Shown here: one piece after another, positions 26,770 to 60,216 of the stretch | Numbering within the stretch: the first letter of the stretch is position 1 | Layout of the letters: each line of letters begins with the position of its first letter | Source: Synechococcus sp. | GTDB taxonomy: Bacteria; Cyanobacteriota; Cyanobacteriia; PCC-6307; Cyanobiaceae | Direction: 5' to 3' | Assembly (NCBI GenBank): GCA_047285805.1 | Contig: JBJBCN010000002.1 | Span: forward strand, 704,001 to 768,000 | DNA: 64,000 bases | The notes under the pieces: model-generated | Seen by the model: the letters and a program-made list of their open reading frames with translations, nothing else | Told to the model about the DNA's origin: nothing | Database searches by the model: none | Position numbers and translations under genes: made by a program

Positions 26770-27022
26770 AGTCCAAGAAGTTCTACGTAGACGAAGGTCG
26801 CTTGAGTTGGGTCCTTCCATCCTTGACGAAGAAAAAGACAAAGTCGACCTAACGCAATGCTGATTACGCCCGAATCAGTCGTACTTAAGGGAGAGGTCTT
26901 CAGCGATGCGACTCGGATCGAGGGTCTGGACAGACCTGGCTGGACAAGGTTTCACACGTTGCAATATCACTGGCACAAAATACACTCCGGCCTCAGAAAG
27001 AACGTCGGAAGGGGTATTGGTA

Positions 27023-27117
27023 GGCGACTGGGGGAACCCAGCCACCACCACACGGATCGAGGAGTTCACGTCTCGTCCTCTGGAGTTATGGCAACGCCTA
27101 CGAAATGAGGCAACAGC
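27023..27117 (+). repeat. Island-shared structured repeat, copy A
   Basis: 85/95 identical to the reverse complement of 59939-60033. Confidence 0.85.
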
Positions 27118-27198
27118 GCTCCGGCCGCAGAACTCTCGGCTTTTTCCGTAGCTTGTTTCGACTGGTTGGGGCAGAATAATCCCAGCATCTCAACCTGG

Positions 27199-27657
27199 AT
27201 GAAGCGCCTTCTCGCATTCGGCACCATTGCCCTGACATTAGCTGCATGTAGTGCTAATCAAAAACCCCAAACGTCGCCCAATTCAACGAAACCTGAGATT
27301 CAGGAGGTCTTTAGTAGTGCTGAGACTTTGAATGGAACTGCTCTTAAGTACCCCTCAGGCAAACCAGAGCTGCGCCTCTACCGAGTTGAAATTCCTGCTG
27401 GAGGGAAGATTCCTCTCCATACTCACCCTGCTCCAATGATGGTTTATGTGCAAGGTGTCAGATCTGGTTCATTACTCAACACTCGAGTTCAGCCTGACGG
27501 GACTGAAGTTAAAACTGTTTTCAAGCCAGGTGAGGCATTTGTCGAAGGTGCCAATGAGCCTCATTACGTCGAGAATGTCGGCAAAGAGCCAACAATCGTT
27601 TGGGTAACAGCTGCTTCGGTCGAAGGCATGCCTACAACAGAGTTCATTGTCGAATGA
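27199..27657 (+). CDS. Cupin-domain lipoprotein
   Basis: Lipobox LAAC; IPLHTHP; EPHYVEN. Confidence 0.85.
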   Translation: MKRLLAFGTIALTLAACSANQKPQTSPNSTKPEIQEVFSSAETLNGTALKYPSGKPELRLYRVEIPAGGKIPLHTHPAPMMVYVQGVRSGSLLNTRVQPDGTEVKTVFKPGEAFVEGANEPHYVENVGKEPTIVWVTAASVEGMPTTEFIVE

Positions 27658-27693
27658 TTTCGACTTAGGTTGGCTGGGCTTGCGCAGGGCCTA

Positions 27694-28073
27694 CTACGGG
27701 CGCTTTTGGGGCTGAGCTGACATTCCGATGAGATTGTCGAGCTCGGCGATGCAAGCAACCATTGAGCTGGGTTGATTGGTCGCCAAGCTCTGTTGGGCAC
27801 CCTCCATCGACAGCCAGATGCACTGGGTCACGATCGCGGGGCGGTCGCACTCGCTGACCTCGAAGTCTTGCTTCAACAGGGCGTAAGCCTTCTTGACTGC
27901 GCGCTGGGCTGTGCGCCTGCTGCAGAAAGCACCCCCACCCCGCCGCCAGACGCGACCCAACGACACTGGGGCTGTTCCCGCGGCTGAGTAGGTCTAGAGC
28001 GGCTTCTACGCGGTAATTTAGTGCGGATTCATTGGTCTCTCCAGAGCCAGAGGAGGAGATTTCTGTAGGCATG
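27694..28073 (-). pseudogene. Frameshifted HTH-like island protein
   Basis: RVEAALDLLSRG..LAAGWGC continues in another frame as SRRTAQRAVKKAY. Confidence 0.5.
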
Positions 28074-28259
28074 AGCAAGCCCGACACCAGGTAGTGGTGT
28101 GAGCTGCTGGCTCATCTCTCTAGTGGTGTCGGTGTGTTCTGCTACCTCCATTGTTTCAGCAAGAGCGTTGGCAGCAATGACAAGTTGAGGTGAAATCACG
28201 ATTACAGCTCTTGCTCATGACTGGCGCGTCTAAGTCCATATGGACAAGATGGGCTTGTA

Positions 28260-29024
28260 GTGCCAAGCAATGCAGTGCTCCTACTTCGAGAAAAGATCTT
28301 TCGTTGGTTAGGGGAAGAAGAGAAGAACAGGACGACGAATCTTGGGAAAGCAATCGGTCTGGTGATCGTCTTTTCAGTTGGGCTCGCTGTTATTGCTACT
28401 GAGCCAATAGCACGAGACTCTTATGGCAGTCTACTGATAAAGCTTGATATAGCAGTTGCAGTGCTGTTTCTGGCTGAATACATCGTTAGGCTCTGGGTAG
28501 CCCCATTGAGAAAGGACGCCAGAGGAGGGGTAAGGGGTGCACTGGATTACGCGCTGACTCCTCTCGCCATTCTTGACCTGCTTGCAATTGCACCGACCAT
28601 TTTGGGTTTTGTGACTCCGGAGCTCTATCTTCTGCGAATCCTTCGCCTGGTACGAATAGGTCGCATTGGGCGCTCCAAGAGATTCAGGAAGAGTGTCAAG
28701 CACTTCAATCGAGCAATCGCATCAAAGAAGGAGGAATTACAGATCTCTGCTGTCTACACCGGAATCGTAATGTTTGTTAGTAGTGTTTTGATGTTTGTTG
28801 CGGAAGGGTCTGTCCAGCAAGAGCAGTTTGGATCGATCCCACGGTGCCTGTGGTGGTCAATTGTGACTGTGACAACCGTCGGCTATGGAGATGTTTATCC
28901 AGTTACGTTCTTTGGACGTGTTATCGCGGCATTGACTGCAATCTGCGGTGTTGCAGCGATCGCCATACCAATCGGGATTATTTCTGCAGGATTTACTGAG
29001 TCTCTCGGCTCCGAAAAGTCTTAA
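28260..29024 (+). CDS. Voltage-gated-type potassium channel
   Basis: S4-like LRILRLVRIGR; selectivity filter TVTTVGYGD. Confidence 0.92.
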   Translation: MPSNAVLLLREKIFRWLGEEEKNRTTNLGKAIGLVIVFSVGLAVIATEPIARDSYGSLLIKLDIAVAVLFLAEYIVRLWVAPLRKDARGGVRGALDYALTPLAILDLLAIAPTILGFVTPELYLLRILRLVRIGRIGRSKRFRKSVKHFNRAIASKKEELQISAVYTGIVMFVSSVLMFVAEGSVQQEQFGSIPRCLWWSIVTVTTVGYGDVYPVTFFGRVIAALTAICGVAAIAIPIGIISAGFTESLGSEKS

Positions 29025-29232
29025 AGAAGATTCTCGAATCCCTGCAGGGCATCAAAGAATTTCTCTGCGCACCTGGCATTAATGAACATGTATTTCTCGT
29101 AAAACCCTGACCGTGACCTGAGGGTGATTTCGCCAAAACTCATCAGCGGGAGCTGCCGATTATCGGTGTAACACTTGTCGCTGCCCCTTGAGCGCGTTAA
29201 AAAAGTCAGAGAAGTCCAACAACCCAAAACAG

Positions 29233-29598
29233 ATGCTTACTGATCAAGAACTGCTCGCCAAGGTCAAGGAGTTGGGTGATGCTCCAAAGACTGAGCTGGC
29301 AACCGCATGTGGATACGTCTCCAAGAAGAAGGACGGTTCAGACCGGGTGAACTTCACTGCCTTCTACGAGGCGCTCCTGAACGCGAAAGGCATTGACCTA
29401 GGCAATGGAGGCAAGAGTGTCGGGAAGGGAGGCAGGAAGCTTTCCTACACCGCAAAGGTTCAGTTCAACGGCAACCTGATGATCGGCAAGGCATACACCG
29501 CCATGCTCGACCTGAAACCAGGCGACGACTTTGAAATCAAATTGGGCAGGAAGTCGATCCGACTGATTCCTGTCGGTAGTTCTGAAGAAGAGGAGTAG
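29233..29598 (+). CDS. Cyanobacterial AbrB-like (cyAbrB) transcriptional regulator
   Basis: ACGYV..FTAFYEALLNAKG..GRKLSY..NGNLMIGKAYT..FEIKLGRK. Confidence 0.92.
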   Translation: MLTDQELLAKVKELGDAPKTELATACGYVSKKKDGSDRVNFTAFYEALLNAKGIDLGNGGKSVGKGGRKLSYTAKVQFNGNLMIGKAYTAMLDLKPGDDFEIKLGRKSIRLIPVGSSEEEE

Positions 29599-29601
29599 GG
29601 A

Positions 29602-29631
29602 CAAAAAAAGAGGCGGGTTTCACCCCGCCTC
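29602..29631 (-). terminator. Intrinsic terminator (U-tract on the minus strand)
   Basis: GAGGCGGG/CCCGCCTC stem with a T7 run on the minus strand. Confidence 0.7.
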
Positions 29632-30398
29632 AGGTTCTCCCTTGAAACCCATTCGAAGGTCTCGGATCGATAGTGCGGCCAGGCATCAATCTATGACGTG
29701 CCTTTGGTCACCCATTGAGCCATGCGTGTGGCACTAAACACTCGGCCTGAGGTTCTCAGTGCAGTCAGTGGGCAGTGCCCCTCCAACGACCAGCCGAGAA
29801 AACCTCCATGGGATTACTAGCCACAGAGGTTTGCGCTCACAGCGACTGCGTCTGCGCCGTGCTGTCCGAAAAGATTCGAGACCAGTTTTGTGCTGGCGGA
29901 AACCGTCTGCAGCTCAGGCGACTGAGACCTGCTGTAGCTAAAGCTGCCTAGGTGCCGCTTGCACTTGCTGATGCCGACCCATTGAGAAGAGCCATAAGAT
30001 AAAAACCCCCGACTTCGAAACTAAGACGTCGGAGGGGTAATGGGCGGGCTCAGGGAGAAATCAGGGAGAGTGTTAGCTCCCCGGCGGATCGCTTGGACTC
30101 GCCAATCAGCGTTCCTACGATCATTTATGGCAAAGCCCATTGGGGTGGTGCGAGGGCTTGTAAAGAAGCTCTACTGCGACTGCACACCCGCATACTGGCG
30201 CTTGGTACCAAAATGAGCCATAACCAAGGTCTGCCGTGCAGTGCATAGGGTGAGAGAGGAGCCTGGTGATGACCGGCTTTTTTCTTGTCAACACATCAGA
30301 TGGCCGACCCACTGCTCACTAGTGGGAAGTGGAAGGACTATCACTCGGCTTGAGCCACAGGCAAGCGGACTAATTAGGCACAAAATCAGGCACAGGGC

Positions 30399-30701
30399 TC
30401 AGATCAGTGCCGAGAGTTTGGTCCTGAAATCCCCCTTCGGCATGCCGCCTTTGATCTCCCCTTTAATACTGAACTCGCCTTCTGGGTCTTCGACTACGAG
30501 GTAAGTCGGCCAGCCCATTCCTTCTTTATTGGGGTACTGCGCCAACAAAACCTTGCGGAATTTCCTGTAGGTCTCCGTGTCCTGAAGCATTACGCTGACA
30601 AAGGTGCACCCCAACTCTTCGGTGACCTTGCTGTCGTAATGACTCATCCGGTGGCAGGTGCCGCAATCCTCGGAGCTGAACTTGAGGACCGTGAGTGTCA
30701 T
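30399..30701 (-). CDS. Thioredoxin-like protein (integration target)
   Basis: CGTC motif and WPTY cis-Pro loop. Confidence 0.88.
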   Translation of the reverse strand: MTLTVLKFSSEDCGTCHRMSHYDSKVTEELGCTFVSVMLQDTETYRKFRKVLLAQYPNKEGMGWPTYLVVEDPEGEFSIKGEIKGGMPKGDFRTKLSALI

Positions 30702-30725
30702 GCCAGGAGATGCAGCAGACACAAC

Positions 30726-30908
30726 CTAGTGGCACTGATCGAAGCTGATGTCACCTAAGAAACAAACATCGAGAAGACGTTGCAAAGCCGCCGCACGGGA
30801 GGGCAAGCCCCACTGCTCTTTGAGGGCATCCAAACGAGCTAAGTGAACAAGGCGGATGTCGCAGGTGACCTTGACACGCTCGTCACCCAGAAAAGGAAGG
30901 CTGTGCAT
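30726..30908 (-). CDS. Small ribbon-helix-helix/CopG-like protein
   Basis: VKVTCDI..LDALKEQWGLPSRAAALQRLLD. Confidence 0.55.
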   Translation of the reverse strand: MHSLPFLGDERVKVTCDIRLVHLARLDALKEQWGLPSRAAALQRLLDVCFLGDISFDQCH

Positions 30909-31164
30909 CTCCCTCGCGAATCGCTGCCGCAACAATGGCCGCGATCAAGGGGATGTCAACGCAAGACCGGAACCGGCAGGTAGGCAGGTGCGAAGCTGCA
31001 GGCCAGGGCGAGCTGCCTAAGGGGCACACCAAAGACGGTGCTCACGACATCGATGGCAACGCGGGACAGCAACCGACCAACACTGTTATCCCAATTGTAA
31101 AGAGACGTAAAGCAGAGCTGAGGTTGCGGGTGTCAGGTCCGCAATCGGTCCAACGGGCGGGGGG

Positions 31165-31989
31165 TTAAGGCGAAGACTCAACGTTGAAGCCGGTGACTTC
31201 CTGCTTGCTGTCCAAGCGGTCGGCCAGGGGCCTCGCTTCTTGGGCCAGCTGGCGTTTCAGCAGAACCCGGTCGGTGACATCCCGTTGGACGGACACCCAA
31301 TGGGTGAACCAACCCGAGGAATCGGCTAGGGGTGAGACCTTGAGCTCAATCCAACACGTGGATTGATCACGCCGGTAGTTGATGACCTGCATCGTCGCGG
31401 ACTTCCACTGGTCCATCGCCGCCCGCAGCGCAGCCGTGCTCTCCTTTGAGGTCTCAGGCCCTTCGAATAAACGCGGACTGCGGCCCAACACCTCATGCAG
31501 GGCGAAGCCGGTGTGCTCCAACAGGGATTTGTTGGCGTAAACAATGATCGGACCAGGGGCGTCCAAGGGTTCAGCCAAGGTCTCCAACACAGCGTCCTGG
31601 GCGGTATCCAACACTCCTTCAAGAAGGCGCCGATAGGCGTCTTCGTTTGTTTCCGCGGGCCCGGCATCCAGGCGCTGGGCCCGGCGCCGCAACACACCGA
31701 CCCCAAAGCCAGAGTCCGAGGCAAACAAGCGAATCCGCGTGGCCAACTCCACACCGGTGGGGTGAGGAAGGGGCAGGACATGGTCCCTGGCTCCTTCGGC
31801 TAGGCGCCTGTGCTCTTGGACAATCAGGTCAGCCAGCTGTGGCCAGCAGTCGTGGATGGGTTGACCGCACCACTCCTGGGCGTGATGCCCCAAACGCTGC
31901 TGAACGCCTCGGTCCACATGGGTGATCACACCGCGCGCGCCGCAGAGCACCAAACCATCCCCGGGCTCCAGCAGGAAGAAAGGGTGCAT
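31165..31989 (-). CDS. Tandem PAS (LOV-like) sensor with no output domain
   Basis: IVYAN..TGF..EVLGRSPRLFEG..NYRRD..W..VSVQRDVT. Confidence 0.8.
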   Translation of the reverse strand: MHPFFLLEPGDGLVLCGARGVITHVDRGVQQRLGHHAQEWCGQPIHDCWPQLADLIVQEHRRLAEGARDHVLPLPHPTGVELATRIRLFASDSGFGVGVLRRRAQRLDAGPAETNEDAYRRLLEGVLDTAQDAVLETLAEPLDAPGPIIVYANKSLLEHTGFALHEVLGRSPRLFEGPETSKESTAALRAAMDQWKSATMQVINYRRDQSTCWIELKVSPLADSSGWFTHWVSVQRDVTDRVLLKRQLAQEARPLADRLDSKQEVTGFNVESSP

Positions 31990-32030
31990 CTGAACAACCT
32001 ATCCGCGTTGAAAAAGCCGATGCTGATGGA

Positions 32031-32819
32031 ATGAGCGCAACCCCGTATTTCGAAGCCATTGCCGTTGAGGCCTGGCTCGGCTCCAGGCCCGTCTTCAAGG
32101 ACTTAACCCTGACCTTGCAGCTCGGTGAACCCACGGTGCTGCTGGGTCCCAACGGTGCCGGCAAAAGCGCCTTGATCCAGTTGATCAGCCGCAGCCTCTA
32201 CCCGGTTGTGAAACCAGGCTCAGCCCTCCGACTCTTCGGGAACAGCACCGTCAAACTCTGGGACCTGCGTCAACGGATTGGCTTTGTCTCGAGTGCTCTT
32301 GAAGCCAGCTACATCACAAGCGTCTGTGCGGAAGATGTCGTTCTTTCGGGAGTCTTTGGCTCAATTGGTTTAGGGCTTCCCCAACAGCCCACAGGCCAAC
32401 AGCGCGATCAGGCGCTTCAGCAACTCGAGCAACTCGGACTCAGCCATCTGCAAAGGCGCCCCTTTGGCGAATGCTCCGATGGACAACGCCGACGTTTGCT
32501 ACTCGGTCGTGCCCTGATTCACCACCCGGAGGTTCTCGTTCTCGACGAACCGATCAACGGGCTGGACTTCAAGTCCAAACACGAATTGCTCGCAACCCTG
32601 AGGCAGCTCAGCCACCAGGGGACCACGGTGCTGCTGGTGACCCACCAGTTGGATGCCGTCATTCCCGAGATCAAACACGCCGTTCTGATTAAGGAGGGGA
32701 CGATCGTGGGCGATGGTCCCGTCGCGGAACTCCTCACCAGCGAATCGTTGAGCGCATGCTTTGACACCCCCATGGCGGTGTTGGAGCAGGGGGGCTGGAG
32801 GCAAGCCGTCCCGCTTTGA
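32031..32819 (+). CDS. ABC transporter ATP-binding protein (ModF-like)
   Basis: GPNGAGKS, SDGQRRR, LDEP. Confidence 0.88.
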   Translation: MSATPYFEAIAVEAWLGSRPVFKDLTLTLQLGEPTVLLGPNGAGKSALIQLISRSLYPVVKPGSALRLFGNSTVKLWDLRQRIGFVSSALEASYITSVCAEDVVLSGVFGSIGLGLPQQPTGQQRDQALQQLEQLGLSHLQRRPFGECSDGQRRRLLLGRALIHHPEVLVLDEPINGLDFKSKHELLATLRQLSHQGTTVLLVTHQLDAVIPEIKHAVLIKEGTIVGDGPVAELLTSESLSACFDTPMAVLEQGGWRQAVPL

Positions 32820-32914
32820 AGCCATAAAAAACAGCCCATGTCGTGCTGTATGAGAGGGCTTCCTCGCCATCCAACCGAAGCCGGCAGCAGCAAGCGATAG
32901 ATCAATCGACTCAA

Positions 32915-34441
32915 TCAGCGCAGCGTCGGGCTCACATCCTTCAGCGGGATCGAGGCATTGCCCCAAGGGCCAACCGATAGGAGCGGCTCGGCACCCTGAC
33001 GCGGCGGAAGCGCGTCCCCCGCGCCATAGGCAGCCTCGACCCAGCCCAACAGCAACGGACCAAGAACGCCGCCGTTGCTCTGGTCACCAGGGCGCAGATT
33101 GAAATGGTCACCGCCCTTCGCCAGGACGAGCTGGTGACCAAAGGGAATGGCCTGACGCATGGGATCGATCGCCTCAGGATCAGGGGGCACAACCCAGTCA
33201 TAGGTGCCGCTGACCACGAGCAAGCGGGCGCTGGTGGCCTGGAGTTCGGGCAGCGCAAACAGCAGCGACATCGGCGGTGAGACGGCCGCCGCCGCCACCA
33301 CCCGCTGATCATGCAGAGCAGCCTGCTTAACGCCCTCCAACCAGCTGCACTGGAGGGTCCAGCTCAAGTTGCGCTGCGGGTCGTCGATTTGAGGGCAACG
33401 GCTCTTCAAGGTTGCCGACTGGGGAACCAATCCGGCCTGCTGCAGAGCTGTTGTCGCTCCCCAGGAGTGGCCGATGACGACTACGGCATCCGCATTGACG
33501 CCGGACACCCCGGCGAGTTGACCGTTTTGAATTGCATCGGTGACGGCGCTGAGATCACGAAAACGCAGCGCGAGCTCGACGGGCTTAGGGGGAGGGACCT
33601 CACCAGTCAACATCTTCATCTGCTCCCTGTTGTCGCTGCCGGGATGGCGCGGCAAAGCGACCGTGTAACCGCTGGACGCCAGCAGCGTTGCCCAGGAGAC
33701 AAAGTTTCTAGGGCTGTCCCACAGCCCGTGAGAGATCAGGACCAACCGCCCATTGCCGCCCTGAGCGGGTTGCAGCAGCACCACCTCCAGAGGGGAGGAG
33801 CGATGGCTGACCGACAAACGAGCCTGGCGTTGACGGGTGGACAGTGCTTGCGTCGTCGGAGCTGGCGCGACGGGCAGCACCGCAGGGGCCGCCTGGGCGA
33901 AGAGGCGGTTGGCCTGGGTGCGCTGGGCCAGCATGCGGCCGAGGATCATGCGCACCTGGCCCAGGTTGAAGCGAATCCGTTGACCGGGGAGGGCTTCGAT
34001 CAGCTCCACCAGGGTGGGTTCACCCGTTTGAGAGTGGGCCATCGCCTGATGCAGGGCAGCCCGAAAGGTCTGACCGGACAGATCCGGACTCCGCCCCTCG
34101 ATCGTCCCCAGAGACGAGACCACAAGCAGGGCCTGCTCCAATAACGGTGAACCCACCGAACCGTCGGCCAAACGGGTCAGGGACATCGGGATGGGCCGCT
34201 GCAGAAGCTGAAGTAGGACCTGACTGACAGCCCCATTGGAGGCACGATCCAGTTCGGCGAGGTCACTGCGGCCGGCCATCAGGGCCTGGGGACTCTTCAG
34301 CTCACTCACCCGAACACTGAAGCTCGAGTCCAAGAGCGGCAGCTCGATCAGAACGTCTTCAATCGCCCGCGCGGGGAAACCCGTGGAGGCGGCCACCAGA
34401 CAACCCAGTCCAAGCCTCTGAAACCACTGGAGACTCGGCAC
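32915..34441 (-). CDS. Alpha/beta hydrolase with DUF1400-like N-terminus
   Basis: ISHGLW, GHSWG nucleophile, GDHF. Confidence 0.85.
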   Translation of the reverse strand: MPSLQWFQRLGLGCLVAASTGFPARAIEDVLIELPLLDSSFSVRVSELKSPQALMAGRSDLAELDRASNGAVSQVLLQLLQRPIPMSLTRLADGSVGSPLLEQALLVVSSLGTIEGRSPDLSGQTFRAALHQAMAHSQTGEPTLVELIEALPGQRIRFNLGQVRMILGRMLAQRTQANRLFAQAAPAVLPVAPAPTTQALSTRQRQARLSVSHRSSPLEVVLLQPAQGGNGRLVLISHGLWDSPRNFVSWATLLASSGYTVALPRHPGSDNREQMKMLTGEVPPPKPVELALRFRDLSAVTDAIQNGQLAGVSGVNADAVVVIGHSWGATTALQQAGLVPQSATLKSRCPQIDDPQRNLSWTLQCSWLEGVKQAALHDQRVVAAAAVSPPMSLLFALPELQATSARLLVVSGTYDWVVPPDPEAIDPMRQAIPFGHQLVLAKGGDHFNLRPGDQSNGGVLGPLLLGWVEAAYGAGDALPPRQGAEPLLSVGPWGNASIPLKDVSPTLR

Positions 34442-34477
34442 AGGTAGAGCGGCAACGTCTTCACCATCATCAAGGGC

Positions 34478-34942
34478 ATGACACAGACCCAGAGCCCACC
34501 CCAGTCCCCCGCTCCGGTGGAAGTGGCCTTGGCGGTTATTGAGCGCGAGGGGCTCTGGTTACTGCAATTGCGTGATGACATCGCCGGAATCGTTGCCCCT
34601 GGCTGCTGGGGCCTGTTTGGGGGCCACCTCGAGCCAGGGGAGTCGCCGGAGGAGGCCCTACGCCGCGAGCTCTGGGAGGAAATTCGACTGCAGCTGGGTG
34701 CCGTTGAGCCCTGGTACGTCTCGCGCAGTCCTGAAAAAATTCGACATGTCTTCCGAGCCCACCTGCAGACAACGCTGCACGCACTCGAACTGATGGAGGG
34801 GCAAGATCTGGCGCTCTTCCCACCCAACGCGCTGGCCTATGGCCAGGGGTTCAGCCCAACACTCCAGCAGTTCAGACCCCTGGCGGAATCAACGCTGGAA
34901 GCGCTCAGCCGGCATCAGGCGGACTGCTCAACGATGCGGTAG
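34478..34942 (+). CDS. NUDIX hydrolase
   Basis: GGHLEPGESPEEALRRELWEEI. Confidence 0.92.
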   Translation: MTQTQSPPQSPAPVEVALAVIEREGLWLLQLRDDIAGIVAPGCWGLFGGHLEPGESPEEALRRELWEEIRLQLGAVEPWYVSRSPEKIRHVFRAHLQTTLHALELMEGQDLALFPPNALAYGQGFSPTLQQFRPLAESTLEALSRHQADCSTMR

Positions 34943-35550
34943 AAGCTGCGCTCATCCGAACAGCAAAGATCGGCGTAGTAACGCTCCAAGACGTCGTAGG
35001 CCGCGTCGTAACTGTCAAAGTACTGGCCGGCAATCGGATCCATGGGCTTCGCCGTCGCGTCCTGTTCGTCGAGGACGATGCGAAACACCGGTCGTTGAGG
35101 TTGCAAGCGATCCAGCAGGTCGCCAAAGCTGAGTCCCTCTCCAAAGGCGCGAATCAGGGGGTTCAAGCCAATCGACTGACGTTCGGGATGCAACTTGGCC
35201 ATGGGAACCAGCCAGAAACGCCACTGCTGCGGATCCAGGGGATGGTGCGGTGCAGCCCTGCTCTCTCCCAACAAACCAAACAACAGCGTGTTGGCCACGC
35301 CGCGGGGGATCTGGAACTGCACGCTGTTCGGCGTGGCCTGGTCGGTGGAGCTGTAAAACCCGGCCGTGCTGATCGAGATCTGCCAATCAGGGATTGGCAG
35401 CACCAGGGACTGAAGATCAGAGCTGGGCTTGGAGGGCCCCGTCTCCAGACCCAGACCGTTTAAGAGCAACCAGTGGCAGCTGGCTTCGCGAACCTCATCA
35501 GCCAGCAGATTCAGCGTGTTCCATTGCAAGAAGGCCGCGAGCTCAGACAT
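34915..35550 (-). CDS. Hypothetical protein (possible two-module fusion)
   Basis: ORF in an operon with the wbuC-like and tauE-like genes. Confidence 0.6.
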   Translation of the reverse strand: MSELAAFLQWNTLNLLADEVREASCHWLLLNGLGLETGPSKPSSDLQSLVLPIPDWQISISTAGFYSSTDQATPNSVQFQIPRGVANTLLFGLLGESRAAPHHPLDPQQWRFWLVPMAKLHPERQSIGLNPLIRAFGEGLSFGDLLDRLQPQRPVFRIVLDEQDATAKPMDPIAGQYFDSYDAAYDVLERYYADLCCSDERSFYRIVEQSA

Positions 35551-41439: not shown

Positions 41440-41442
41440 GGG

Positions 41443-51160: not shown

Positions 51161-51162
51161 CG

Positions 51163-51723
51163 GTGCTCCGACTGCATCCCTTCCGTCAGGACTCAGGCCT
51201 CAAAGGGATTGTCCTGGAAGGCCATATCCGCTGGGTCGCCGATCAGCTCCTGCTCCAATTCAGGCTCCAGGGCCCCCAAAAGAAGCTGGTCTTCCCAAGC
51301 CAAACAGACGCACCCCAAAGGCTCGATGGTCTTTGGAACTCCACCTGTTTGGAGGCCTTTTTTGGAGTTCCTGGTAAACCCCACTACTGGGAGTTCAACC
51401 TCAGTCCGAGTGGCGATTGGAACCTCTATCGCTTGGATGATTACCGCCAGGGACTACTGCAGGAGGAGGGGATGGGGATCAGAGCGATCAGCCTTCAGAA
51501 GGAGGATTTGGGAAGCGCAGTCCAGCTAAAGGCAGACATCGCAATCGATCTTGGGGAGACCTTAAGGGCCCACCACAGTCTCGAAGGATCACTGACAGCG
51601 GTAATCGAACAGCAGGGCGTCGGTTGCAGTCATTGGGCCCTCAAACACTGCGGCGAAGAAGCCGATTTTCACCGCCGCGAAAGCTTCACCCTCGGCATTC
51701 ATAAAGAGCCTGAATCCGCGTAA
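51163..51723 (+). CDS. DOMON-like domain protein
   Basis: LWNSTCLEAF, YWEFNLSPSGDW, ADFH. Confidence 0.8.
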   Translation: MLRLHPFRQDSGLKGIVLEGHIRWVADQLLLQFRLQGPQKKLVFPSQTDAPQRLDGLWNSTCLEAFFGVPGKPHYWEFNLSPSGDWNLYRLDDYRQGLLQEEGMGIRAISLQKEDLGSAVQLKADIAIDLGETLRAHHSLEGSLTAVIEQQGVGCSHWALKHCGEEADFHRRESFTLGIHKEPESA

Positions 51724-51807
51724 CAAATCCGAAGAAATACTCGCGCTTTCAAGGGACCAGGAGGATCTCTGTAGCCTGCGCTACAGAAACTCTGTGCAAC
51801 AGCCAAC

Positions 51808-51993
51808 TTGAACGTCACCCACTGCGGGGAAGAGCATCTGATCAGCTTGACGACGGATGAAGCGGCTCAGCTTGTGGATGCTTGCGCGTTGCTGCTGCTG
51901 GCCTCCAAGACAACCCCTGATTGCCAACTCAAGCCCGAGATGGCCCAGGTGTTGCAAACGGTCTTCGAGCATTTCAGCACCCACGTCGTCTAA
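51808..51993 (+). CDS. Small conserved hypothetical protein
   Basis: 61-aa ORF upstream of the DUF2499 gene. Confidence 0.6.
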   Translation: MNVTHCGEEHLISLTTDEAAQLVDACALLLLASKTTPDCQLKPEMAQVLQTVFEHFSTHVV

Positions 51994-52015
51994 CCAGCGC
52001 CGCTAGAACCAGCGG

Positions 52016-52318
52016 ATGCACGCGCTCTCCCTACCCACCTGGTGGATCCATGTAGCTTCCGTCCTGGAGTGGGTCCTCGCCATTCTGGCGATCCAGCGCT
52101 GGGGGACTCGGAGGGGAGAACCGGAATGGACCTGGCTCGCCCTTGCCATGGTTCCAGCGCTGATCAGCGCCATGGCGGCCTGCATCTGGCATCTCTTTGA
52201 TAACGCCGACGAGATCTACGGACTCGTGGTCCTACAGGCCGGATGCACCGTCTTGGGCAACGGGACCATGGCACTGGCGGCCTGGAACCTCCAGCGGAGG
52301 CGGAGTGAGCTCGGATGA
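52016..52318 (+). CDS. DUF2499 (Ycf49-like) membrane protein
   Basis: MHALSLPTWWIHVASVLEW. Confidence 0.88.
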   Translation: MHALSLPTWWIHVASVLEWVLAILAIQRWGTRRGEPEWTWLALAMVPALISAMAACIWHLFDNADEIYGLVVLQAGCTVLGNGTMALAAWNLQRRRSELG

Positions 52319-52647
52319 GCAGGCTGATTCCGGCCATTAGTGAAGGGCTGCACGTTCTCGGCAACGTGGATCCCGCACCATTGTTTGCGGCGTCCCTCTT
52401 CCCCTACCTGGCGTTTCTGTGGTGGGCCTGGAGATCCAAGCGCTTTCCCCGCTTGGCCCTTTGGGGCTTTGGCTTCACCCTGGTCTTCGTCCTGATCACG
52501 ATTGCGGCAGCCATCCTTGCCGAAGAGATCTATGGCCAGCAGCTCGCGGATGTGGACCCGCTCCATGGCGGAGCCGAGCTGTTTTTAACCATCAGCAACG
52601 TGATGATCCTGCTTGGTTTTATGGACAAGGGGGTGAACAAGTCTTAA
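52315..52647 (+). CDS. DUF3593 membrane protein
   Basis: LFAASLFPYLAFL, LADVDPLHGGAE. Confidence 0.85.
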   Translation: MSRLIPAISEGLHVLGNVDPAPLFAASLFPYLAFLWWAWRSKRFPRLALWGFGFTLVFVLITIAAAILAEEIYGQQLADVDPLHGGAELFLTISNVMILLGFMDKGVNKS

Positions 52648-52704
52648 GCGAGGGCGCCATTCGCGAGAGGCCCTCTGACAATCAGGTGTCACCCAAAGAA
52701 TTCG

Positions 52705-52962
52705 ATGCTCGCTCCTCTGCTGGCTATCGCCCCCGCCTCCGTGGCCTGGTCTCCCAAGGTGGGCCTGGTGATGATCATCGCCAACGTGATCGCCATCGGC
52801 ATCGGCAAGGCCACCATCAAGTACCCCAACGAGGGTGCCCAACTGCCCAACCCAGCGATGTTCGGTGGCATGAGCCACGCAGCACTGCTGGCAACCACCT
52901 CCTTCGGTCACATCCTCGGCATAGGCGCCATCCTGGGCCTGGCCGCCCGCGGCGTGGTCTGA
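52705..52962 (+). CDS. psaK: Photosystem I subunit PsaK
   Basis: WSPKVGLVMI, SFGHILGIGAILGL. Confidence 0.95.
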   Translation: MLAPLLAIAPASVAWSPKVGLVMIIANVIAIGIGKATIKYPNEGAQLPNPAMFGGMSHAALLATTSFGHILGIGAILGLAARGVV

Positions 52963-52990
52963 AGTCCTCCATCCCGGTCCGTCTCGCCGG

Positions 52991-53017
52991 AGCCCCCCTG
53001 GTTCAGGGGGGCTTTTT
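52991..53017 (+). terminator. psaK intrinsic terminator
   Basis: AGCCCCCCTG/CAGGGGGGCT stem plus T-run. Confidence 0.85.
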
Positions 53018-53037
53018 GATTTGCGGGTACCAACGCC

Positions 53038-54249
53038 TCAGCGCAGACCGATCAGATAGGGAAGGGCCCGCAAGCCGTAGCGCTCAAAGCGGTACTCAAA
53101 CAACAGCTGCGACATGGCTTCAGCGCTGGCGGTGGCTTCGAGGCCAGCCATTAATCGTTCGAGTCGCCCATCGGCCCGTTCATCCGACAGCCCCAACCAG
53201 GTGCGCTTGGCGAGGCGGCCGCTTAAGGACCACCGCCAACCAAGTCGCCCGCGCAAACGCTTCGGGTAGGAAACCAGAGCCCTGGGCCGGCCCGCCAGGG
53301 CGTCCAGCAGAAGAGGGGCCAACACATCCGCACTAGCCAAGGCATGGCGAATCCCCTCCCCACCGAGAAGATTTCCTGTGCTCACGGCGTCTCCCAAGCC
53401 CAACAGAGAACCCCGTTGGTGGCATTCACGTCGGCAGATCGTGCTGCGAATCAGACCACCATGGCGATCGAGAACCGCCTCGGGCATGAGCTCTAGCCGC
53501 TGAAGCAGGGCTTGCTGAAGCTGATGCAGTGGGGGTTGAAGGCGGGTGCCGTCTTGCAACCGACAGACGCCCAGCTTCAATAGGCCGGGTTGCATCGGAA
53601 AGACCCAGCCATAGCCCTGGGGCACCCAGCGACTGCCCAACATGAAACTCAGTCGGCCGGACCAGTCCTGCCACTGGTCGGGGGAGACCCTGAGCAACCA
53701 CTCCACGCCGGAACCGCTGATCAATGGCCCCTGGGCCGGGTCCGGATCGCCCAACAACGCGCGCTTTTCACCGGTGGCATCCACCACAAAGCGACTAGTC
53801 ACGCTGGCCGTCCGTCCGCCACGCCCACGCAGCTCCGTTCGAGCCAGACCTTTGGCCAGGGTTTGGGTGAAACAGACCCGCCACCCCAGACGCAACTCCG
53901 CACCAAGGGCGCAAGCTTCATCGGCCAACCAGCGGCGCAACGCCGCAAAGTCCAAGACAACCCCGAGGGGGCCAGCGGCGGACCAGTGCCGCTGACGTTC
54001 TCCCGGTCCCAACAGCTGCCACTGGTCCCAACGGGCAGCAATCACCCGCTCGGGCAGCCGCCATCGATGGACTGCACTCAGGGGAAGGGCCGCACTGCTG
54101 AAGGCGTTCTCAGAGAAATCCGGAAGCGCGTCGACGACGAGAACCGAAGCCCCTGCCTCAGCGAGCTGTTGAGCCAAGCGGGACCCGGCGGGACCGGCCC
54201 CCGCGATCAGCACATCCCAGACTGCTTGATCAGGGATCGACTCAGACAC
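53038..54249 (-). CDS. FAD-dependent oxidoreductase (geranylgeranyl reductase/FixC family)
   Basis: GAGPAG, DATG, GYGWVFP, GDA..GEGI. Confidence 0.85.
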
Positions 54250-56149
54250 CCACAGCCTGACGCTTCAAGGTGCCGAAGCGATTCAGGATGGACTCGCTCA
54301 TTTGAGCTGGGGTGAGCCCCAGGGCCTGCTTGCTTTGGGCCGGGGTGGCGTGATCGACGAGAACGTCGGGAATGCCAATCCGATGCACCGGCACCAGGAC
54401 GTCCTGGTCGTTGAGGATTTCCACGACGGCGGCACCAAAGCCACCGGCTAGACAGCCCTCTTCCATGGTGACGACCTTGCCGATTCGTCTGGCCATGGGA
54501 AGAATCAGCGCTTCATCGAGGGGACGAAGGAAGCGAGCGTTGATCACGGCGGCGCGGACGCCTTGCTCCTGCAGCAAGCCAGCGGTGGCCATGGCGGGTG
54601 CCACCATCGATCCATAGGCCACGATCAGGAGGTCGTCGCCATCGGTCAGCAGTTCACCGCGACCGATTTCGAGGGGCTCCCAACCCTCTTCCATCAGTGG
54701 AGCCCCCTCGCCTTCACCGCGGGGAATGCGTAGGGCGGTCGGACCGTCGTGGTTGAGGCAGGTCACCATCATTCTCTGGAGCTCAGCTTCATCCTTGGGT
54801 GCCATCACCGTGAAGTTGGGGACGCAGCGTAAATAGGTAATGTCGTACTGGCCCTGGTGGGTCGGCCCATCGGCGCCGACGATGCCAGCGCGGTCCAACA
54901 CGAAGGTGACCGGCAGGTTCTGAATACCAACGTCATGGATCAGTTGGTCGTAGGCGCGTTGCAGGAAAGTGCTGTAGATCGCACAGACCGGACGGAGACC
55001 TTCGCAGGCCATGCCCGCAGCCATCGTCACCGCGTGCTGTTCAGCGATGCCGACGTCGAAATACTGCTGGGGACGCGCCTTCTCGAGCAAGTCCAGACCG
55101 GTGCCGGTGGCCATGGCCGCCGTAATGCCCACCACCCGGGGGTCCTGTTCGCAGAGCTTGACAAGGGTCTGGCCAAAAACCTTGCTGTAGCTGGGGGGCT
55201 TTGGCTTGCTTGAGGGATAGGCCTTGCCGGTGGCGAGATCGAAGGCGCTCTGGGCGTGGTAGCCCACTTGATCTTCTTCGGCGAAGGCATAGCCCTTGCC
55301 CTTGGTCGTGGCCACATGAACAAGAACCGGGCCCTCATGGGCGTGGGCCTGCTCGAACACATCGATCAAACCGCCGATGTCATGGCCATCTACCGGCCCC
55401 ATGTAGGTGAAGCCCAGCTCCTCAAACACCGCTCCCAACTTGGGAACGGCAAGCCGCTTCATGCTCTCTTTGAGGTTCTTGAGTTCGGGAGGGAGCTCGC
55501 CGTGCATGAACGGCAGATGCTTGATCGCTTCCTCGGCGTTGTCCTGAAGAAACTGAAGCGGTCGGCTGTGCCGCATCCGGTTCAGATGGGTGGACAGGGC
55601 TCCGACCGGGGGGCTGATCGACATGTCGTTGTCGTTCAGAACCACCAATAGGCGGGTCTTGGGCAGGTGACCGGCGTGGTTGATGGCCTCAAGGGCCATA
55701 CCACCGGTAAGTGAGCCATCGCCAATGACGGCAACGCTCTTGAAGTCCTCGCCGCGCTGGTCCCGGGCCAGGGCCATGCCGAGGGCCGCCGAAATAGAGG
55801 TGCTGGCATGGCCAGCACCGAAGTGGTCGAAGGGGCTCTCGCAGCGCTTCAGATAACCCGCGACGCCGTTCTTCTGGCGCAGGGTGTGGAAGTCGTTGTA
55901 GCGACCGGTGATCAGCTTGTGGGGGTAGGCCTGGTGGCCCACGTCCCAAACGACCCGATCCTTGTCGAGGTCGAGGGTTTGATAGAGGGCGAGGGTGAGC
56001 TCCACCACCCCCAGGCCTGGGCCAAGGTGGCCACCACTCGTGCTCACCACTTCCAGGTGACGCTCGCGGATTTGGCGGGCAATGCCTTCAAGCTCAGCGA
56101 CGCTGAGGCCATGCAGCTGATTGGGATGCGTCAGCTCGCTGAGATGCAT
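54242..56149 (-). CDS. dxs: 1-deoxy-D-xylulose-5-phosphate synthase
   Basis: [41 protein letters not shown]. Confidence 0.97.
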
Positions 56150-56267
56150 GCCTGGGGCCAAGATTGTGGTTCAGCCTACGCGCAGCAGGACATCATCTGG
56201 GGCGAATTCGATACCCCCCTAGACCGATGTCTGGGGCTTGCGACACTGGTGTGATCTTCCGATAGCG

Positions 56268-57860
56268 ATGACAGCCACCGGCTCTGCCCTGAACTCCAGC
56301 TCCGGCATGGAGATGCTGCAGCGAATCCTGCGAGCCAGGGTCTACGACGTGGCCATTGAATCGCCGCTCGATACCGCTCCGAACCTGTCGCGGCGCCTGA
56401 AGAACAACGTCCTTTTGAAGCGCGAGGACCTGCAGCCGGTCTTCAGCTTCAAGCTCCGGGGTGCCTACAACAAAATGGTTGGCCTCAGCCCGTCTGAGTT
56501 GGAACGGGGCGTTATCGCCGCCAGCGCCGGCAACCATGCACAAGGGGTGGCGCTCGGGGCCCAGCGACTCGGTTGCCGGGCGGTGATCGTCATGCCGGTG
56601 ACCACACCGGAGATGAAGGTCCGGGCCGTGGCGTCCCGCGGTGCAGAAGTCGTGTTGGAAGGCGACACCTACGACGCCGCCTGCGCTGAGGCCTATCGGC
56701 TAGCCGACGAACGCGGCCTGACCTTTATCCACCCCTTCGATGACCCGGAGGTGATCGCCGGCCAGGGAACCATCGGCCTCGAAATCCTCAGGCAATGCTC
56801 CGAACCCCCCGACGCCATCTACATCGCCGTTGGTGGTGGAGGCCTCATCGCGGGTGTGGGCGCCTACGTCAAGACCCTCTGGCCCAACGTTGAAGTGATA
56901 GGCGTTGAACCGGTTGATGCGGATGCGATGACCCGCTCGCTGGCCCTGGGTGAACGGGTGAAGCTGGAGCAGGTGGGACTCTTTGCGGACGGTGTCGCGG
57001 TGCGCGAAGTCGGAGTGCAGACCTTTGCACTGGCTCGCGAGGTCGTTGACGCGATGGTCACCGTCGACAACGACGCCATCTGCGCCGCCATTAAGGATGT
57101 TTTTGAGGACACCCGCTCCATCCTTGAACCGGCTGGCGCTCTCGCGGTGGCAGGCATGAAAGCTGACATCGCTCGACGAACACTTGAGGGGAAGACCCTG
57201 GTGGCCGTGGCCTGCGGGGCCAACATGAACTTTGATCGCCTGCGCTTCGTCGCCGAACGCACGGAGATCAGCGAGGACCGCGAAGCGATGTTGGCGGTGG
57301 AGATCCCCGAGCAAGCTGGGAGCCTCCGCCAGTTCTGCACCCTGCTGGGGCAGCGGAGCTTGACTGAATTCAGTTACCGGCTCGCCGACCCCTGCCGCGC
57401 CCACATCTTCGTGGGGGTCCAGACCAGTGGCAGCTCCGACGAGGAAGCGCTGATCCACAGCCTGAGGGATGCCGGGTTCCCGTGCCTGGACCTCTCGAAC
57501 GACGAGCTTTCGAAGCTGCACCTGCGTCACATGGTCGGAGGACGGCTTCAGGGCAGTACCGGTGAGGCCACCGGCCACGGCCGGGAACTGCTCTATCGCT
57601 TCGAGTTCCCCGAGCGGCCAGGAGCCCTAATGCGATTCCTGACCAGCCTGCACCCGAACTGGAACATCAGCATCTTCCACTACCGAAACCATGGGGCAGA
57701 TGTCGGCCGGATTGTCGTGGGCGTACAGGTCCCAGCGGCGGAAATGAACGATTGGCAGGGCTTCCTGGATAGCCTCGGTTACCAGTACGCCGATGAAACC
57801 GACAACCCGGCCTATCGCCTCTTCCTTGGAGAGCTGGCCGGCAGCCTGAGCGTGGGATAA
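56268..57860 (+). CDS. ilvA: Biosynthetic threonine ammonia-lyase
   Basis: FSFKLRGAYN, SAGNHAQG; ACT-like C-terminus FPERPGAL. Confidence 0.96.
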   Translation: MTATGSALNSSSGMEMLQRILRARVYDVAIESPLDTAPNLSRRLKNNVLLKREDLQPVFSFKLRGAYNKMVGLSPSELERGVIAASAGNHAQGVALGAQRLGCRAVIVMPVTTPEMKVRAVASRGAEVVLEGDTYDAACAEAYRLADERGLTFIHPFDDPEVIAGQGTIGLEILRQCSEPPDAIYIAVGGGGLIAGVGAYVKTLWPNVEVIGVEPVDADAMTRSLALGERVKLEQVGLFADGVAVREVGVQTFALAREVVDAMVTVDNDAICAAIKDVFEDTRSILEPAGALAVAGMKADIARRTLEGKTLVAVACGANMNFDRLRFVAERTEISEDREAMLAVEIPEQAGSLRQFCTLLGQRSLTEFSYRLADPCRAHIFVGVQTSGSSDEEALIHSLRDAGFPCLDLSNDELSKLHLRHMVGGRLQGSTGEATGHGRELLYRFEFPERPGALMRFLTSLHPNWNISIFHYRNHGADVGRIVVGVQVPAAEMNDWQGFLDSLGYQYADETDNPAYRLFLGELAGSLSVG

Positions 57861-57891
57861 CTTGCAAACAACGCGCTTTTCGGCACGGGGT

Positions 57892-58527
57892 ATGACAGGC
57901 GAAACCGAGAAGCCGACCCCTACGGACTCCGAGGCGATCGCGCTTCAACCAGCAAACAGCTCGCTCTCTCTCCCCGCACGGCTGGAGGCGATTCTTTATC
58001 TTAAAGGTCGAGCCATGACTAAAGGGGAATTAGCGGAGATATCGGGAGCCAGCCGTGACGAAGTCGAGGTGGGGCTCATCACCTTGATGGCCGACTACGC
58101 CCACCGGGACACGGCGCTGGAGATCCGACAGGAAAGCAAGCGCTATAGCCTGCAATTGCGGGATGGACTGGGGGACCTCGTTCAAAACTTGTTGCCCGTG
58201 GATCTCTCGACGGCGGCCCTGCGCACCCTGGCCACGATCGCGATCAAAAAGCGGATCTTGCAGTCCGATCTGGTCGATCTACGCGGTTCAGGGGCCTACG
58301 ACCACATCAAGGAACTGCTGGCCCAGAACTTCATTGAGCGCAAACGCCAAAGCGAAGGCCGTTCGTTTTGGTTGAGCCTCAGCGAGAAGTTTCATCGGAC
58401 CTTCTCGGTTAAAACCGATGAACTGGTTGCTCAGCGCAAAGCGGTCAAATCTGTTGCCGCTGCTGAGCCCGTCGAGGTCAATCGGGCCAGCGACGTCAGT
58501 GATGAGGAGTGGGAGCTTGCCGCCTAG
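57892..58527 (+). CDS. scpB: SMC-Scp complex subunit ScpB
   Basis: LEAILY, LSTAALRTLATIA, LRG. Confidence 0.92.
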   Translation: MTGETEKPTPTDSEAIALQPANSSLSLPARLEAILYLKGRAMTKGELAEISGASRDEVEVGLITLMADYAHRDTALEIRQESKRYSLQLRDGLGDLVQNLLPVDLSTAALRTLATIAIKKRILQSDLVDLRGSGAYDHIKELLAQNFIERKRQSEGRSFWLSLSEKFHRTFSVKTDELVAQRKAVKSVAAAEPVEVNRASDVSDEEWELAA

Positions 58528-58569
58528 GCCGCTCCCACTCCATAGAGTGATCCCAACGCAGCTGTAGCC

Positions 58570-58857
58570 ATGTCCATCCTCGGCGACCTGATCGGCGTCC
58601 TGATCCAGACGCTCTCGATCTACACGCTGGTGTTGTTCGTTCGGGTGCTGCTCAGCTGGTTCCCCAATCTGGATTGGGGCAACCCTGTTCTCTCCACGGT
58701 TAGCGCCATCACCGATCCGTACCTGAATGTCTTCCGGGGACTCATCCCACCCCTGGGCGGCCTGGATCTCTCCGCAATCGTCGCTTTCCTAGCCCTGCAA
58801 CTCCTGCAGGGTCTGCTCGAGCAAAGTCGCGGCTACTTCTACCCCGCGTTTTTCTAG
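58570..58857 (+). CDS. yggT: YggT/Ycf19 membrane protein
   Basis: RVLLSWFPN, TDPYLNVFR..IPP.GGLD. Confidence 0.93.
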   Translation: MSILGDLIGVLIQTLSIYTLVLFVRVLLSWFPNLDWGNPVLSTVSAITDPYLNVFRGLIPPLGGLDLSAIVAFLALQLLQGLLEQSRGYFYPAFF

Positions 58858-59025
58858 GCCGGATAGGCTTCGGCGACGACTTGCTCCAAGGGAAGCAGGT
58901 CAGACGTCAGAAGCATTGAACAACAGGGTTCTCAGCGAGCTCATCGGGCTCCGGATCAAATCTGGGTGAAATCAGCATGCTTCGCCCTTGAGGTTGATTA
59001 AGCAGCCCGGCCGAGAAAACAGAGC

Positions 59026-59355
59026 TCAACCTTCACGATGAGCCACTGGACAGGCCTGAGAGGCCCTTACCGGGGCCTTGCGTGGGCGATGCGCCTCAGA
59101 GGAAGCAAGCGGCAGCTCGCCGTGCCCCTTGCGCACGATTCCGGTCACGAGATTGGGGTTCACGGTGCGCACAACCCCGCTGTCCACGTCCGTGATCTGA
59201 AAGAAGGAGTTGGCGCTGCACCTTGCACCGCCTTCGCAGTGGATGACCTGACCGACCCACCAGCCGCCTTCATGCGGCTCAACCAGCACCGCGTCGCCGA
59301 CGCCGACCTGCAGAAAGACCGGTTCAAGAGAAGAGCTGCCGGTGATTGCCGCCAT
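59026..59355 (-). CDS. DUF3104 family protein
   Basis: FLQVGVGDAVLV, WWVGQVIHCEGGAR, FQITDVDSG..VN. Confidence 0.85.
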   Translation of the reverse strand: MAAITGSSSLEPVFLQVGVGDAVLVEPHEGGWWVGQVIHCEGGARCSANSFFQITDVDSGVVRTVNPNLVTGIVRKGHGELPLASSEAHRPRKAPVRASQACPVAHREG

Positions 59356-59588
59356 AGAACCCCTGAATAGTACGCAAGTTCTATCAGGGATCATGCCTAT
59401 GGCAATAGGAAAATTGGCTCATTCCAGGAGCGTGGCCAGCGCATGTGGACATGACCGTTGGCTGCCACGCATAAGCAATCGGGAAGTTGCCTAAAAACGA
59501 ATCAGCAGCTCGGATGATGTGTCAGAGCGAACACCCAGAAGTAAATGTGAATCGGTATCAAGGGTTGCCATTTACAGCAGCCTTTCCA

Positions 59589-59759
59589 GTGCAGTTCCAG
59601 TACCGAGGCGTTACGCACCCCAACATCAAGACCATCTCCGTTGAACAGAAGGAATGCGTCTATCGCGGCGTTTCTTATGTCCGCACCTTCGATGCCGAAA
59701 GCAAGGTCGTGGATTTGACAGCTAGTAAGGATGCAACCGACGAAGCACTGGCTGCCTGA
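59589..59759 (+). CDS. DUF4278-like small protein
   Basis: Two YRGV repeats; start uncertain (ORF open from 59487). Confidence 0.7.
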   Translation: MQFQYRGVTHPNIKTISVEQKECVYRGVSYVRTFDAESKVVDLTASKDATDEALAA

Positions 59760-59938
59760 GCCTCATCGCTCACATTGCGCTTCCGGCCCCGCTTAAGCGT
59801 TTTTTTGTTGGGCTTGCACTGACGGCAGCATCAAGGCCATAACCGCCAAGGACACGGTGGTCGTCACCCTGTGATCCGAAAGGGGGCTACTTCTCACACC
59901 AGCCCCCACCCCATCACCCCCGCTCCAGGGCTGGTGGG

Positions 59939-60033
59939 GCTGTTGCCTGATTTCGCAGGCTTTGCGATAACGCCAGAGGACGAGACGTGAACTCCTCGAT
60001 CTGTGTGGCGGCGGCTGGGTGGCCCCAGTCGCC
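59939..60033 (-). repeat. Island-shared structured repeat, copy B
   Basis: Inverted homologue of 27023-27117. Confidence 0.85.
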
Positions 60034-60216
60034 AACAACACCCTTCCGGGGCTTCTCTTTTGAAGCCGGAGAGGCTTTTGGGCACTACACCAGGGCGTGA
60101 CGGTCAGAACCCGTTGCAAACGGTGCTTGGCATTAGCCCATCGCCGAGGGCGCAGCCAGTCACGCGCGCTGCATCGACGAGATCAGGCAGCAGTGCGCTG
60201 ATGAGGGGCTGGAGCC

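Follow-up and report, generated by a model that had tools for sequence, protein, structure and literature searches.

Two islands carrying inverted copies of one repeat

The window analysed here is a stretch of 64,000 nucleotides from Synechococcus sp. (assembly GCA_047285805.1, contig JBJBCN010000002.1, positions 704,001 to 768,000 of the forward strand), belonging to a genome of 2.37 Mb and 61% GC, picocyanobacterial in its gene content, referred to below as G000; G023, G043 and G049 are relatives, and L and C numbers designate collected loci and contigs, respectively. It contains two islands, each holding one copy (copy A and copy B) of the short, hairpin-rich repeat that is the subject of this study. 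Island 1 (21675..30584) lies between 179-nt direct repeats in a thioredoxin-like gene and includes the N-terminal remnant of an integrase (21965-22315). Its target duplication (21675-21853 and 30406-30584) is long and 89% identical, and it restores the 3' half of the thioredoxin-like gene. Island 2 (58870..61594) lies between 33-nt direct repeats at the 3' end of the open reading frame (ORF) 61546-62055 and carries a frameshifted tyrosine integrase gene (60217..61538, minus strand), 39% identical to an intact integrase in G023. Both target duplications are in coding sequence, as proposed in an earlier note on this DNA, which had described the islands as inserting into protein-coding genes.

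The same note had drawn attention to the repeat. Between 27023-27117 (copy A) and the reverse complement of 59939-60033 (copy B), 85 of 95 positions are identical, and the exact 29-nt core was re-found at 27055-27083. This pair forms the longest inverted repeat in the window (98 nt, 89%), the runner-up measuring 37 nt. The weaker similarity reported on the 5' side is genuine (BLASTN alignment of 147 nt, E 4e-35), and the stems that had been named are present. One of these, the GCCT..AGGC inverted repeat, sits inside the spacer of the promoter-like motif described below and may therefore act as an operator in the DNA instead of forming a stem in the RNA. Copy B is indeed close to the integrase gene, whose stop is at 60217 (distance 134-184 nt), but it had been described as downstream on the same strand; its likely RNA strand is the opposite one, so that copy B and the integrase gene would be convergent. 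Overlooked were six further copies elsewhere in the genome and a paralogous repeat that adjoins copy B and is also found several times in island 1.

Two related units in one genus

A profile search finds eight copies of the repeat, hereafter type 2, in G000, all at E 2e-27 or better, the next match being at 0.055. Type 2 is represented 14 times among the collected loci: eight times in G000, four in G023, once in G049 and once in a metagenome contig. Directly adjoining most of these copies is a second repeat of ~140 bp, type 1, with 35 profile matches in G000. The order of parts is identical in the two types and consists, across the family, of a promoter-like motif followed by two to three hairpins. 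Thirty-two type 1 copies served to build a covariance model, which they match by construction and which aligns type 2 from end to end, with scores of 38.5 bits for the copy on C3 and 14.4 bits (E 0.0023) for copy A. Type 2 is a variant of the type 1 island repeat, of which G000 has about 30 copies.

The type 2 unit measures 133 bp and its predicted RNA, with three hairpins, ~106 nt. Copy A occupies 26972..27113 on the minus strand (predicted promoter and ~107-nt RNA). Its putative promoter, TTGCCT, 17 nt, CATAAC, is at 27085..27113, followed by a first hairpin holding most of the 29-nt core (27054..27078), a second hairpin (27023..27046) and a terminal hairpin with a U-rich tail (26972..27018), at the foot of which lies a cassette junction. 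Copy B occupies 59943..60083 on the plus strand (predicted promoter and ~106-nt RNA), with its motif at 59943..59971 and one change in the -10 box (GCGATAAC). The two predicted RNAs thus extend from 27078 to 26972 (minus) and from 59978 to 60083 (plus), 106-107 nt each. In tandem before copy B stands a type 1 unit (59814..59946, plus; three hairpins; 90.1 bits with the type 1 model), with a promoter-like motif at 59814-59843 (plus) and, in a loop, the Yfr1/Yfr10 motif with one mismatch (59889-59899). Island 1 also contains a full type 1 unit (24785..24923, minus; 126.9 bits; promoter-like motif at 24891-24920) and a degenerate one (23432..23553, minus; 27.1 bits).

Within the genus, the type 1 model has matches in 13 of 45 genomes: 35 in G000, 28 in G023, 16 in G049 and one to four in each of the others. 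Matches outside the genus, in six genomes of a 150-genome draw from the taxonomic family, were weak, without the layout of the repeat and coding-like by eye, and were rejected. Among the genomes searched, the repeat family is therefore restricted to one genus. Many copies are incomplete or drifting, and old copies are found at orthologous positions across genomes.

The element is structured and non-coding, as the earlier note had held. Hairpins are present in type 1 and type 2. In type 1, 83% of the cells of the hairpin alignment are paired and 21 two-sided changes were counted where shuffles give 10.6 (0/500), most of them within the two inner hairpins; kinship of the sequences can inflate this count. 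There is no codon signal in any of the six frames: the synonymous fraction is 0.17-0.24 where 0.24-0.28 is expected (0.26-0.31 against 0.24-0.28 for single changes only), the six frames behave alike, and 1-nt insertions and deletions are common among copies. Nor does it belong to a known Rfam family, the window giving no match at the gathering threshold and chance matches only at a permissive one (E up to 10). Cyano-2, searched directly in G000, scores 12.7 bits at best, at a place away from the element. As a positive control, the same Rfam scan recovers Yfr1 and three Yfr2/Cyano-1 genes in G000 loci.

The eight type 2 copies of G000 lie 0.7, 4.9, 5.5, 10.7, 13, 44, 55 and 94 kb from the nearest tyrosine recombinase gene or remnant, only one of them within 1 kb; one copy is 173 nt from tRNA-Val. 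Flanking GC is below 0.585 at six of the eight, versus 20% of random sites. The link is therefore to islands generally and not to integrase islands specifically: the island association is supported, whereas the proposal that the element is particular to integrase islands in coding genes is not.

A promoter-like motif at fixed spacing

The motif is on the strand opposite to that considered in the earlier note and reads TTGC/TTGACA, 18 nt, CATRAC, with a spacer of 17 nt in type 2. After removal of seven type 1 matches without the motif, 52 type 1 ends were available for measuring the spacing: CAA[GC] lies exactly 19 nt from GTTATGGC in 38 of them, 18 nt in one, and at neither distance in 13. The first half of the spacer carries little information, mostly below 0.3 bit per position, and old copies have a perfect TTGACA. 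A strict version of the pattern has seven matches in G000 at a spacer of 19 and none at 15-18 or 20-23; at spacings of 18-19, 12 of 13 G000 matches are inside repeats, and at other spacings none is. This strict pattern occurs in 9 of 22 near-complete genomes of the genus; of 279 other genomes, 3 have it, a single time each, and the corresponding counts for the reversed control are 0 and 3. The three matches outside the genus were rejected, being without the family layout and coding-like by eye. With a spacer one base longer, the pattern matches three times, versus four for its reversed form. Type 2 fits more loosely, with TTGCCT, 17 nt, CATAAC in 10 of 13 copies, intact in copy A and with one change in copy B; its spacer, one base shorter, is compatible with a promoter because promoters tolerate such a change. 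The -35 box of type 2 lies partly within the tail of the type 1 unit upstream. The palindromic CGRE1 (PMC6191309) is a different motif. Two sigma-factor pseudogenes are present in G000, one of the group-3 type at C2:874168-874800, intact in G023, G043 and G049, and a second at C2:996170-996900.

Among 55 sites, the motif heads eight multi-member clusters of dissimilar bodies. A terminator-like hairpin stands no more than 140 nt behind it in a mean of 0.66 of cluster members, compared with 0.13 for the divergent side, 0.33 for the antisense strand and 0.09 for island windows chosen at random, and in five of the eight clusters at least 75% of members have one. In one cluster, seven of eight members have ACUCCUCACAC, or a sequence close to it, in a hairpin loop on the motif strand. 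Yfr10 has the 11-mer in a loop atop a stem (PMC2518516, PMC6778093), and the loop on the motif strand therefore sets the likely RNA strand of the family. The same loop is seen, with one mismatch, in the type 1 unit beside copy B. Type 2 has ACUCCUC only (9 of 13 copies), partly paired, and so does not have the Yfr10 loop.

The same motif precedes Yfr10-like RNAs whose terminal loop holds the 11-mer, exactly or with one mismatch, at C2:295336 and C2:1227556 of G000 and at L201, L206, L208, L213 and L216; for the one at L206, pairing with Yfr2 5' ends is predicted. A short unit (~55 nt) that shares the -10 box and has a clear U6 terminator is found in G000 at C2:298651 (+) and C2:567652 (-), and faces type 1 units head-on in several islands.

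Terminal hairpins at cassette boundaries

Terminal-hairpin sites were collected from G000, the fetched island stretches and L030 (n = 79). Neighbouring sites less than 4 kb apart are co-oriented in 42 of 45 cases, and two of the three exceptions come from a single palindrome that was called twice. Units reaching from one site to the next recur with lengths of 133, 214-224, 271-274, 372-381, 440, 1584 and 3502 nt, several of them with different neighbours. Among those that recur with both ends at a site, the DUF3303 unit (440 nt) is found at five loci, the 214-224-nt unit at three, and a lipoprotein unit of 271-274 nt at two and in part at a third. Within the window, a 214-nt cassette lies between terminal-hairpin sites at 24574..24788 and recurs at two further loci, and the DUF3303 cassette (~430-440 nt) occupies 24147..24573 (minus), with a degenerate site at its end and different neighbours at the four other loci. 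The arrays comprise 2-7 sites and are scattered over many islands, with ORFs in both orientations.

Across 58 sites, the pairing of left with right flanks is many-to-many, and the identity of left flanks ends at AAC. Type 2 precedes nine different right families in nine cases, and seven of nine multi-member left families have all-different partners. Four left-flank families, that of copy A among them, switch at the same AAC to one of several continuations (type 2, type 1 or another sequence), with no more than about 3-10 nt in common at the junction. In L030, type 2 and the DUF3303 cassette are separated by a one-ORF unit (98 codons) that is flanked by a 10-bp direct repeat. Sequence variants within the hairpin do not go with either flank, and the crossover position is therefore not fixable.

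Several further sequences occur beside the sites. The 98-residue ORF of the L030 cassette (4046-4342, minus) has no Pfam match. Behind type 1, and reaching as far as the AAC junction, stands a hairpin-rich repeated spacer of ~95 nt (C2:544745-544830 of G000, minus, and at least eight other places), with five kinds of neighbour. A family of small acidic-tailed CxCxxC proteins (about 50-60 residues), island-repeated and often decayed, stops just before a site; members are at L004 (~1330-1500, plus), L002, L006, L009 and ~24930-25120 of the window.

A probable small-RNA and promoter module

From the copies, their paralogy, the motif and its spacing, the hairpins and the recurring junctions, all of which are observed, we infer transcription, its strand and termination, the involvement of a sigma factor and the mode of exchange. 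The explanation that we favour, and hold with modest confidence, is that the element is a multicopy small-RNA gene and promoter module, its terminal hairpin marking the points at which island cassettes are exchanged. In its favour are the rigid two-part motif with its free spacer, the terminator-like hairpins behind the motif in the eight clusters, the Yfr1/Yfr10 loop of one cluster, the covarying type 1 hairpins, the recognition of type 2 by the type 1 model and the lack of a codon signal. The promoter-like motif would start a three-hairpin RNA of ~106 nt, probably ending leakily at the last hairpin, with type 2 usually standing directly behind a type 1 unit and its -35 box reaching into that unit's tail. 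Because the terminator is weak, the element could also serve as a portable promoter for downstream sequence. Copies would have multiplied within islands, and the shared terminal hairpin would have become the exchange point of small cassettes, most simply by homologous recombination between copies together with slippage at the hairpin foot. Such slippage is provoked by hairpins even when no enzyme takes part, and its combination with recombination between 45-140-bp copies needs no new enzyme.

A number of results weigh against this explanation. Firstly, the promoter-like motif is not canonical. The -10 box CATRAC is without the final T, and sigma-70 promoters need a T at the last -10 position; a consensus promoter scan of both copies reported no promoter and no matching terminator. 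A group-3 sigma factor was considered as the cognate factor and rejected, since it does not co-occur with the motif: its gene is present in 19 of 22 genomes of the genus irrespective of the motif and is broken in G000. No viral relative of it was found. Secondly, the tails do not clearly behave as terminators. Those of type 1 are terminator-like in 6 of 21 cases versus 10 of 21 antisense, their U content (3.5 versus 3.2) does not tell the strands apart, and the type 2 tail, in which 10 of 13 copies have 3 U among 8 nt, is weak. Thirdly, type 2 taken alone is 81.5% paired, with covariation not above shuffles (42/500), and its gain on cofolding with the Yfr2 5' end (-6 to -9 kcal/mol) is within shuffles; for comparison, Yfr1 gains -17 to -22 and the sister family -9 to -15 kcal/mol. 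Both the type 1 covariance model and the motif were, moreover, derived from the very sequences on which they were tested. Finally, junctions sharing 3-10 nt are hard to reconcile with homologous recombination alone.

RNA coverage at copy A is also low, with a bin depth of 0.6-1.3 in four metatranscriptome assemblies of one study, where a neighbouring island element of ~90 nt reaches 74-5889; these data are contigs of mixed strains from which strand and level are not derivable, and low cover is at most a weak hint. One contig of depth 2, which may be DNA, spans type 2 and the DUF3303 cassette.

At 25930-26050, the window contains a second multicopy island element, by far the most deeply covered stretch of the four assemblies (bin depth 74-5889), with seven copies in G000 and others in relatives. 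It is often 1-4 kb from the repeat family and has a three-way fold and no Rfam match. It is possibly Yfr103-like.

Alternative explanations

Foremost among the alternatives, and in our view possible although doubtful, is an integron-like system, in which the terminal hairpin (RYYYAAC ... GTT, one bulged base) would be a single-strand recombination site served by a recombinase in trans, and type 2 would be a promoter cassette without a gene that has entered such a site. Co-oriented sites bounding exchangeable cassettes, as in integrons, are what we find: the near-uniform orientation of neighbouring sites, the recurrence of units with new neighbours, the many-to-many flanks, the four families switching at one AAC and the L030 unit with its direct repeat all agree with it, and the repeated use of one nucleotide keeps an enzymatic route alive. 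Gene-less promoter cassettes also occur in Vibrio superintegrons (PMC11014356). However, no integron integrase (TIGR02249) is over the cut-off in any of five genomes (best 25.8 of 265 bits), and no single integrase family accompanies the arrays. An attC site has R and L boxes, 57 bp or more, and complementary cassette ends; the site here has AAC/GTT but spans ~47 bp without L boxes, and the cassette ends are complementary over ~4 nt only (by eye). The hairpin variants that follow neither flank, the ORFs in both orientations and the possibility of enzyme-free slippage at the hairpin foot also speak against it. We give equally tentative consideration to a bolder form, in which a small-RNA gene would have turned into an integron-like device with a new single-strand site and a recombinase other than IntI, type 2 being a mobile promoter of an unreported CATRAC sigma specificity, and island genes being reordered and switched by position.

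An unlikely reading is that the element acts in cis only, as a bidirectional terminator or a leader module shared by island genes, which duplication and gene conversion would have spread, and that it gives no free RNA of its own or is by now largely decayed. The stop codons found on both strands just before the terminal hairpin, the many incomplete or drifting copies and the low RNA cover at copy A are consistent with it. It leaves unexplained why a fixed-spacer motif precedes dissimilar terminated bodies, and does not account for type 2, which adjoins no ORF start of its own.

Less likely again is a non-autonomous rolling-circle mini-element of the IS91 kind, carrying neighbouring genes by read-through, with CTTG as target or nick tetranucleotide, the two inner hairpins serving as ori end and the last one, with GTTG, as ter end. 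The layout agrees with the description of IS91, which has a CTTG target, two ori palindromes, one ter palindrome and one-ended transposition (PMC13181058); shared are the CTTG at one end and the two inner and one terminal palindromes. Many different flanks follow CAAG, and type 2 has apparent empty sites. On the other hand, none of five genomes has a Y2 HUH transposase, and the only Y1 enzyme, in G023, is ~70 kb from the nearest site found. No empty CTTG target site was found for the 52 type 1 ends (G000 and fetched stretches), the bases just inside CTTG are variable, unlike a transposon end, and old copies sit at orthologous positions across genomes. A RAYT-like Y1 HUH gene is at L140 (G023:C1:1333252-1333593), between two tyrosine integrase genes and with no site near.

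The proposal of the earlier note, a mobilisation, packaging or regulatory site specific to integrase islands in coding genes, is very improbable and largely refuted by the distribution of the element. Both window copies are in such islands, one of them 134 nt from the integrase, but the six other copies are 5-94 kb from an integrase gene or remnant, one beside a tRNA, and three of the four copies in G023 are about 100 kb from an integrase. Mobilisation or packaging also finds no support in exact-pattern scans, which gave 0 matches for four patterns in viral contigs and none in phages and plasmids, in sets that may leave out genomes near G000. Two Dietzia stretches from a pattern scan of genome contigs matched over only ~26 nt and were taken as chance.

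A decayed small protein gene, suggested by one protein-like frame that is open in several copies, has next to no credibility given the near-neutral synonymous fraction in all six frames and the frequent 1-nt indels; no protein database was searched with that frame.

Discussion

The element is real, lineage-limited and non-coding. Its closest counterparts are picocyanobacterial small RNAs: like this family, Yfr10, Yfr12, Yfr18 and Yfr2-5 (PMC2518516, PMC6778093, PMC6191309) are multicopy, island-prone, short and structured, at unconserved loci and often in tandem. Yfr10 shares its ACUCCUCACAC loop with the sister family under the same motif and, with one mismatch, with type 1 beside copy B. Type 2, by contrast, is without the 11-mer, without Yfr2 pairing and without a match to Rfam Yfr1 or Cyano-1, and the family as a whole differs from the Yfr RNAs in its far higher copy number and in bounding gene cassettes.

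Integron arrays and CALINs resemble the family in that co-oriented AAC/GTT palindromes separate reordered small ORFs, and the Vibrio promoter cassettes resemble type 2 as ORF-less units with a promoter, here a predicted one (PMC11014356). The family differs in having no IntI and a site shorter than attC and lacking L boxes, and its 2-7 sites are scattered over many islands with ORFs of either orientation. From IS91 it is set apart by the absence of a transposase and of a type 1 empty site, and by the variable bases beside CTTG.

REP/BIME sequences and PRE1 of Prochlorococcus are dispersed palindromic repeats after stops or in islands, and are recombination substrates. The unit described here differs from them in its fixed-spacer promoter-like motif and covarying inner hairpins. 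No RAYT-type gene was found in G000. We found no description of the repeat in the literature covered, which did not include some papers on non-coding RNAs of marine Synechococcus or the list of Yfr10-like RNAs that supplements PMC6778093; both may bear on novelty. Nothing decisive came from PMC7368042, PMC5069720 and PMC3575428.

In picocyanobacterial islands, the gain and reordering of tiny genes are poorly explained beyond integrase entry at tRNAs, and the family could represent an integrase-independent or novel cassette-shuffling system. A defined repeat that marks cassette boundaries makes the question of gene reordering testable. The shared non-canonical motif points to an unassigned sigma-factor or transcription-factor regulon whose members are nearly all island RNAs, new Yfr10-like ones among them. 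Enzymatic shuffling would constitute a cassette system outside integrons; with shuffling that is not enzymatic, the family would be a lineage-limited group of small RNAs of moderate interest.

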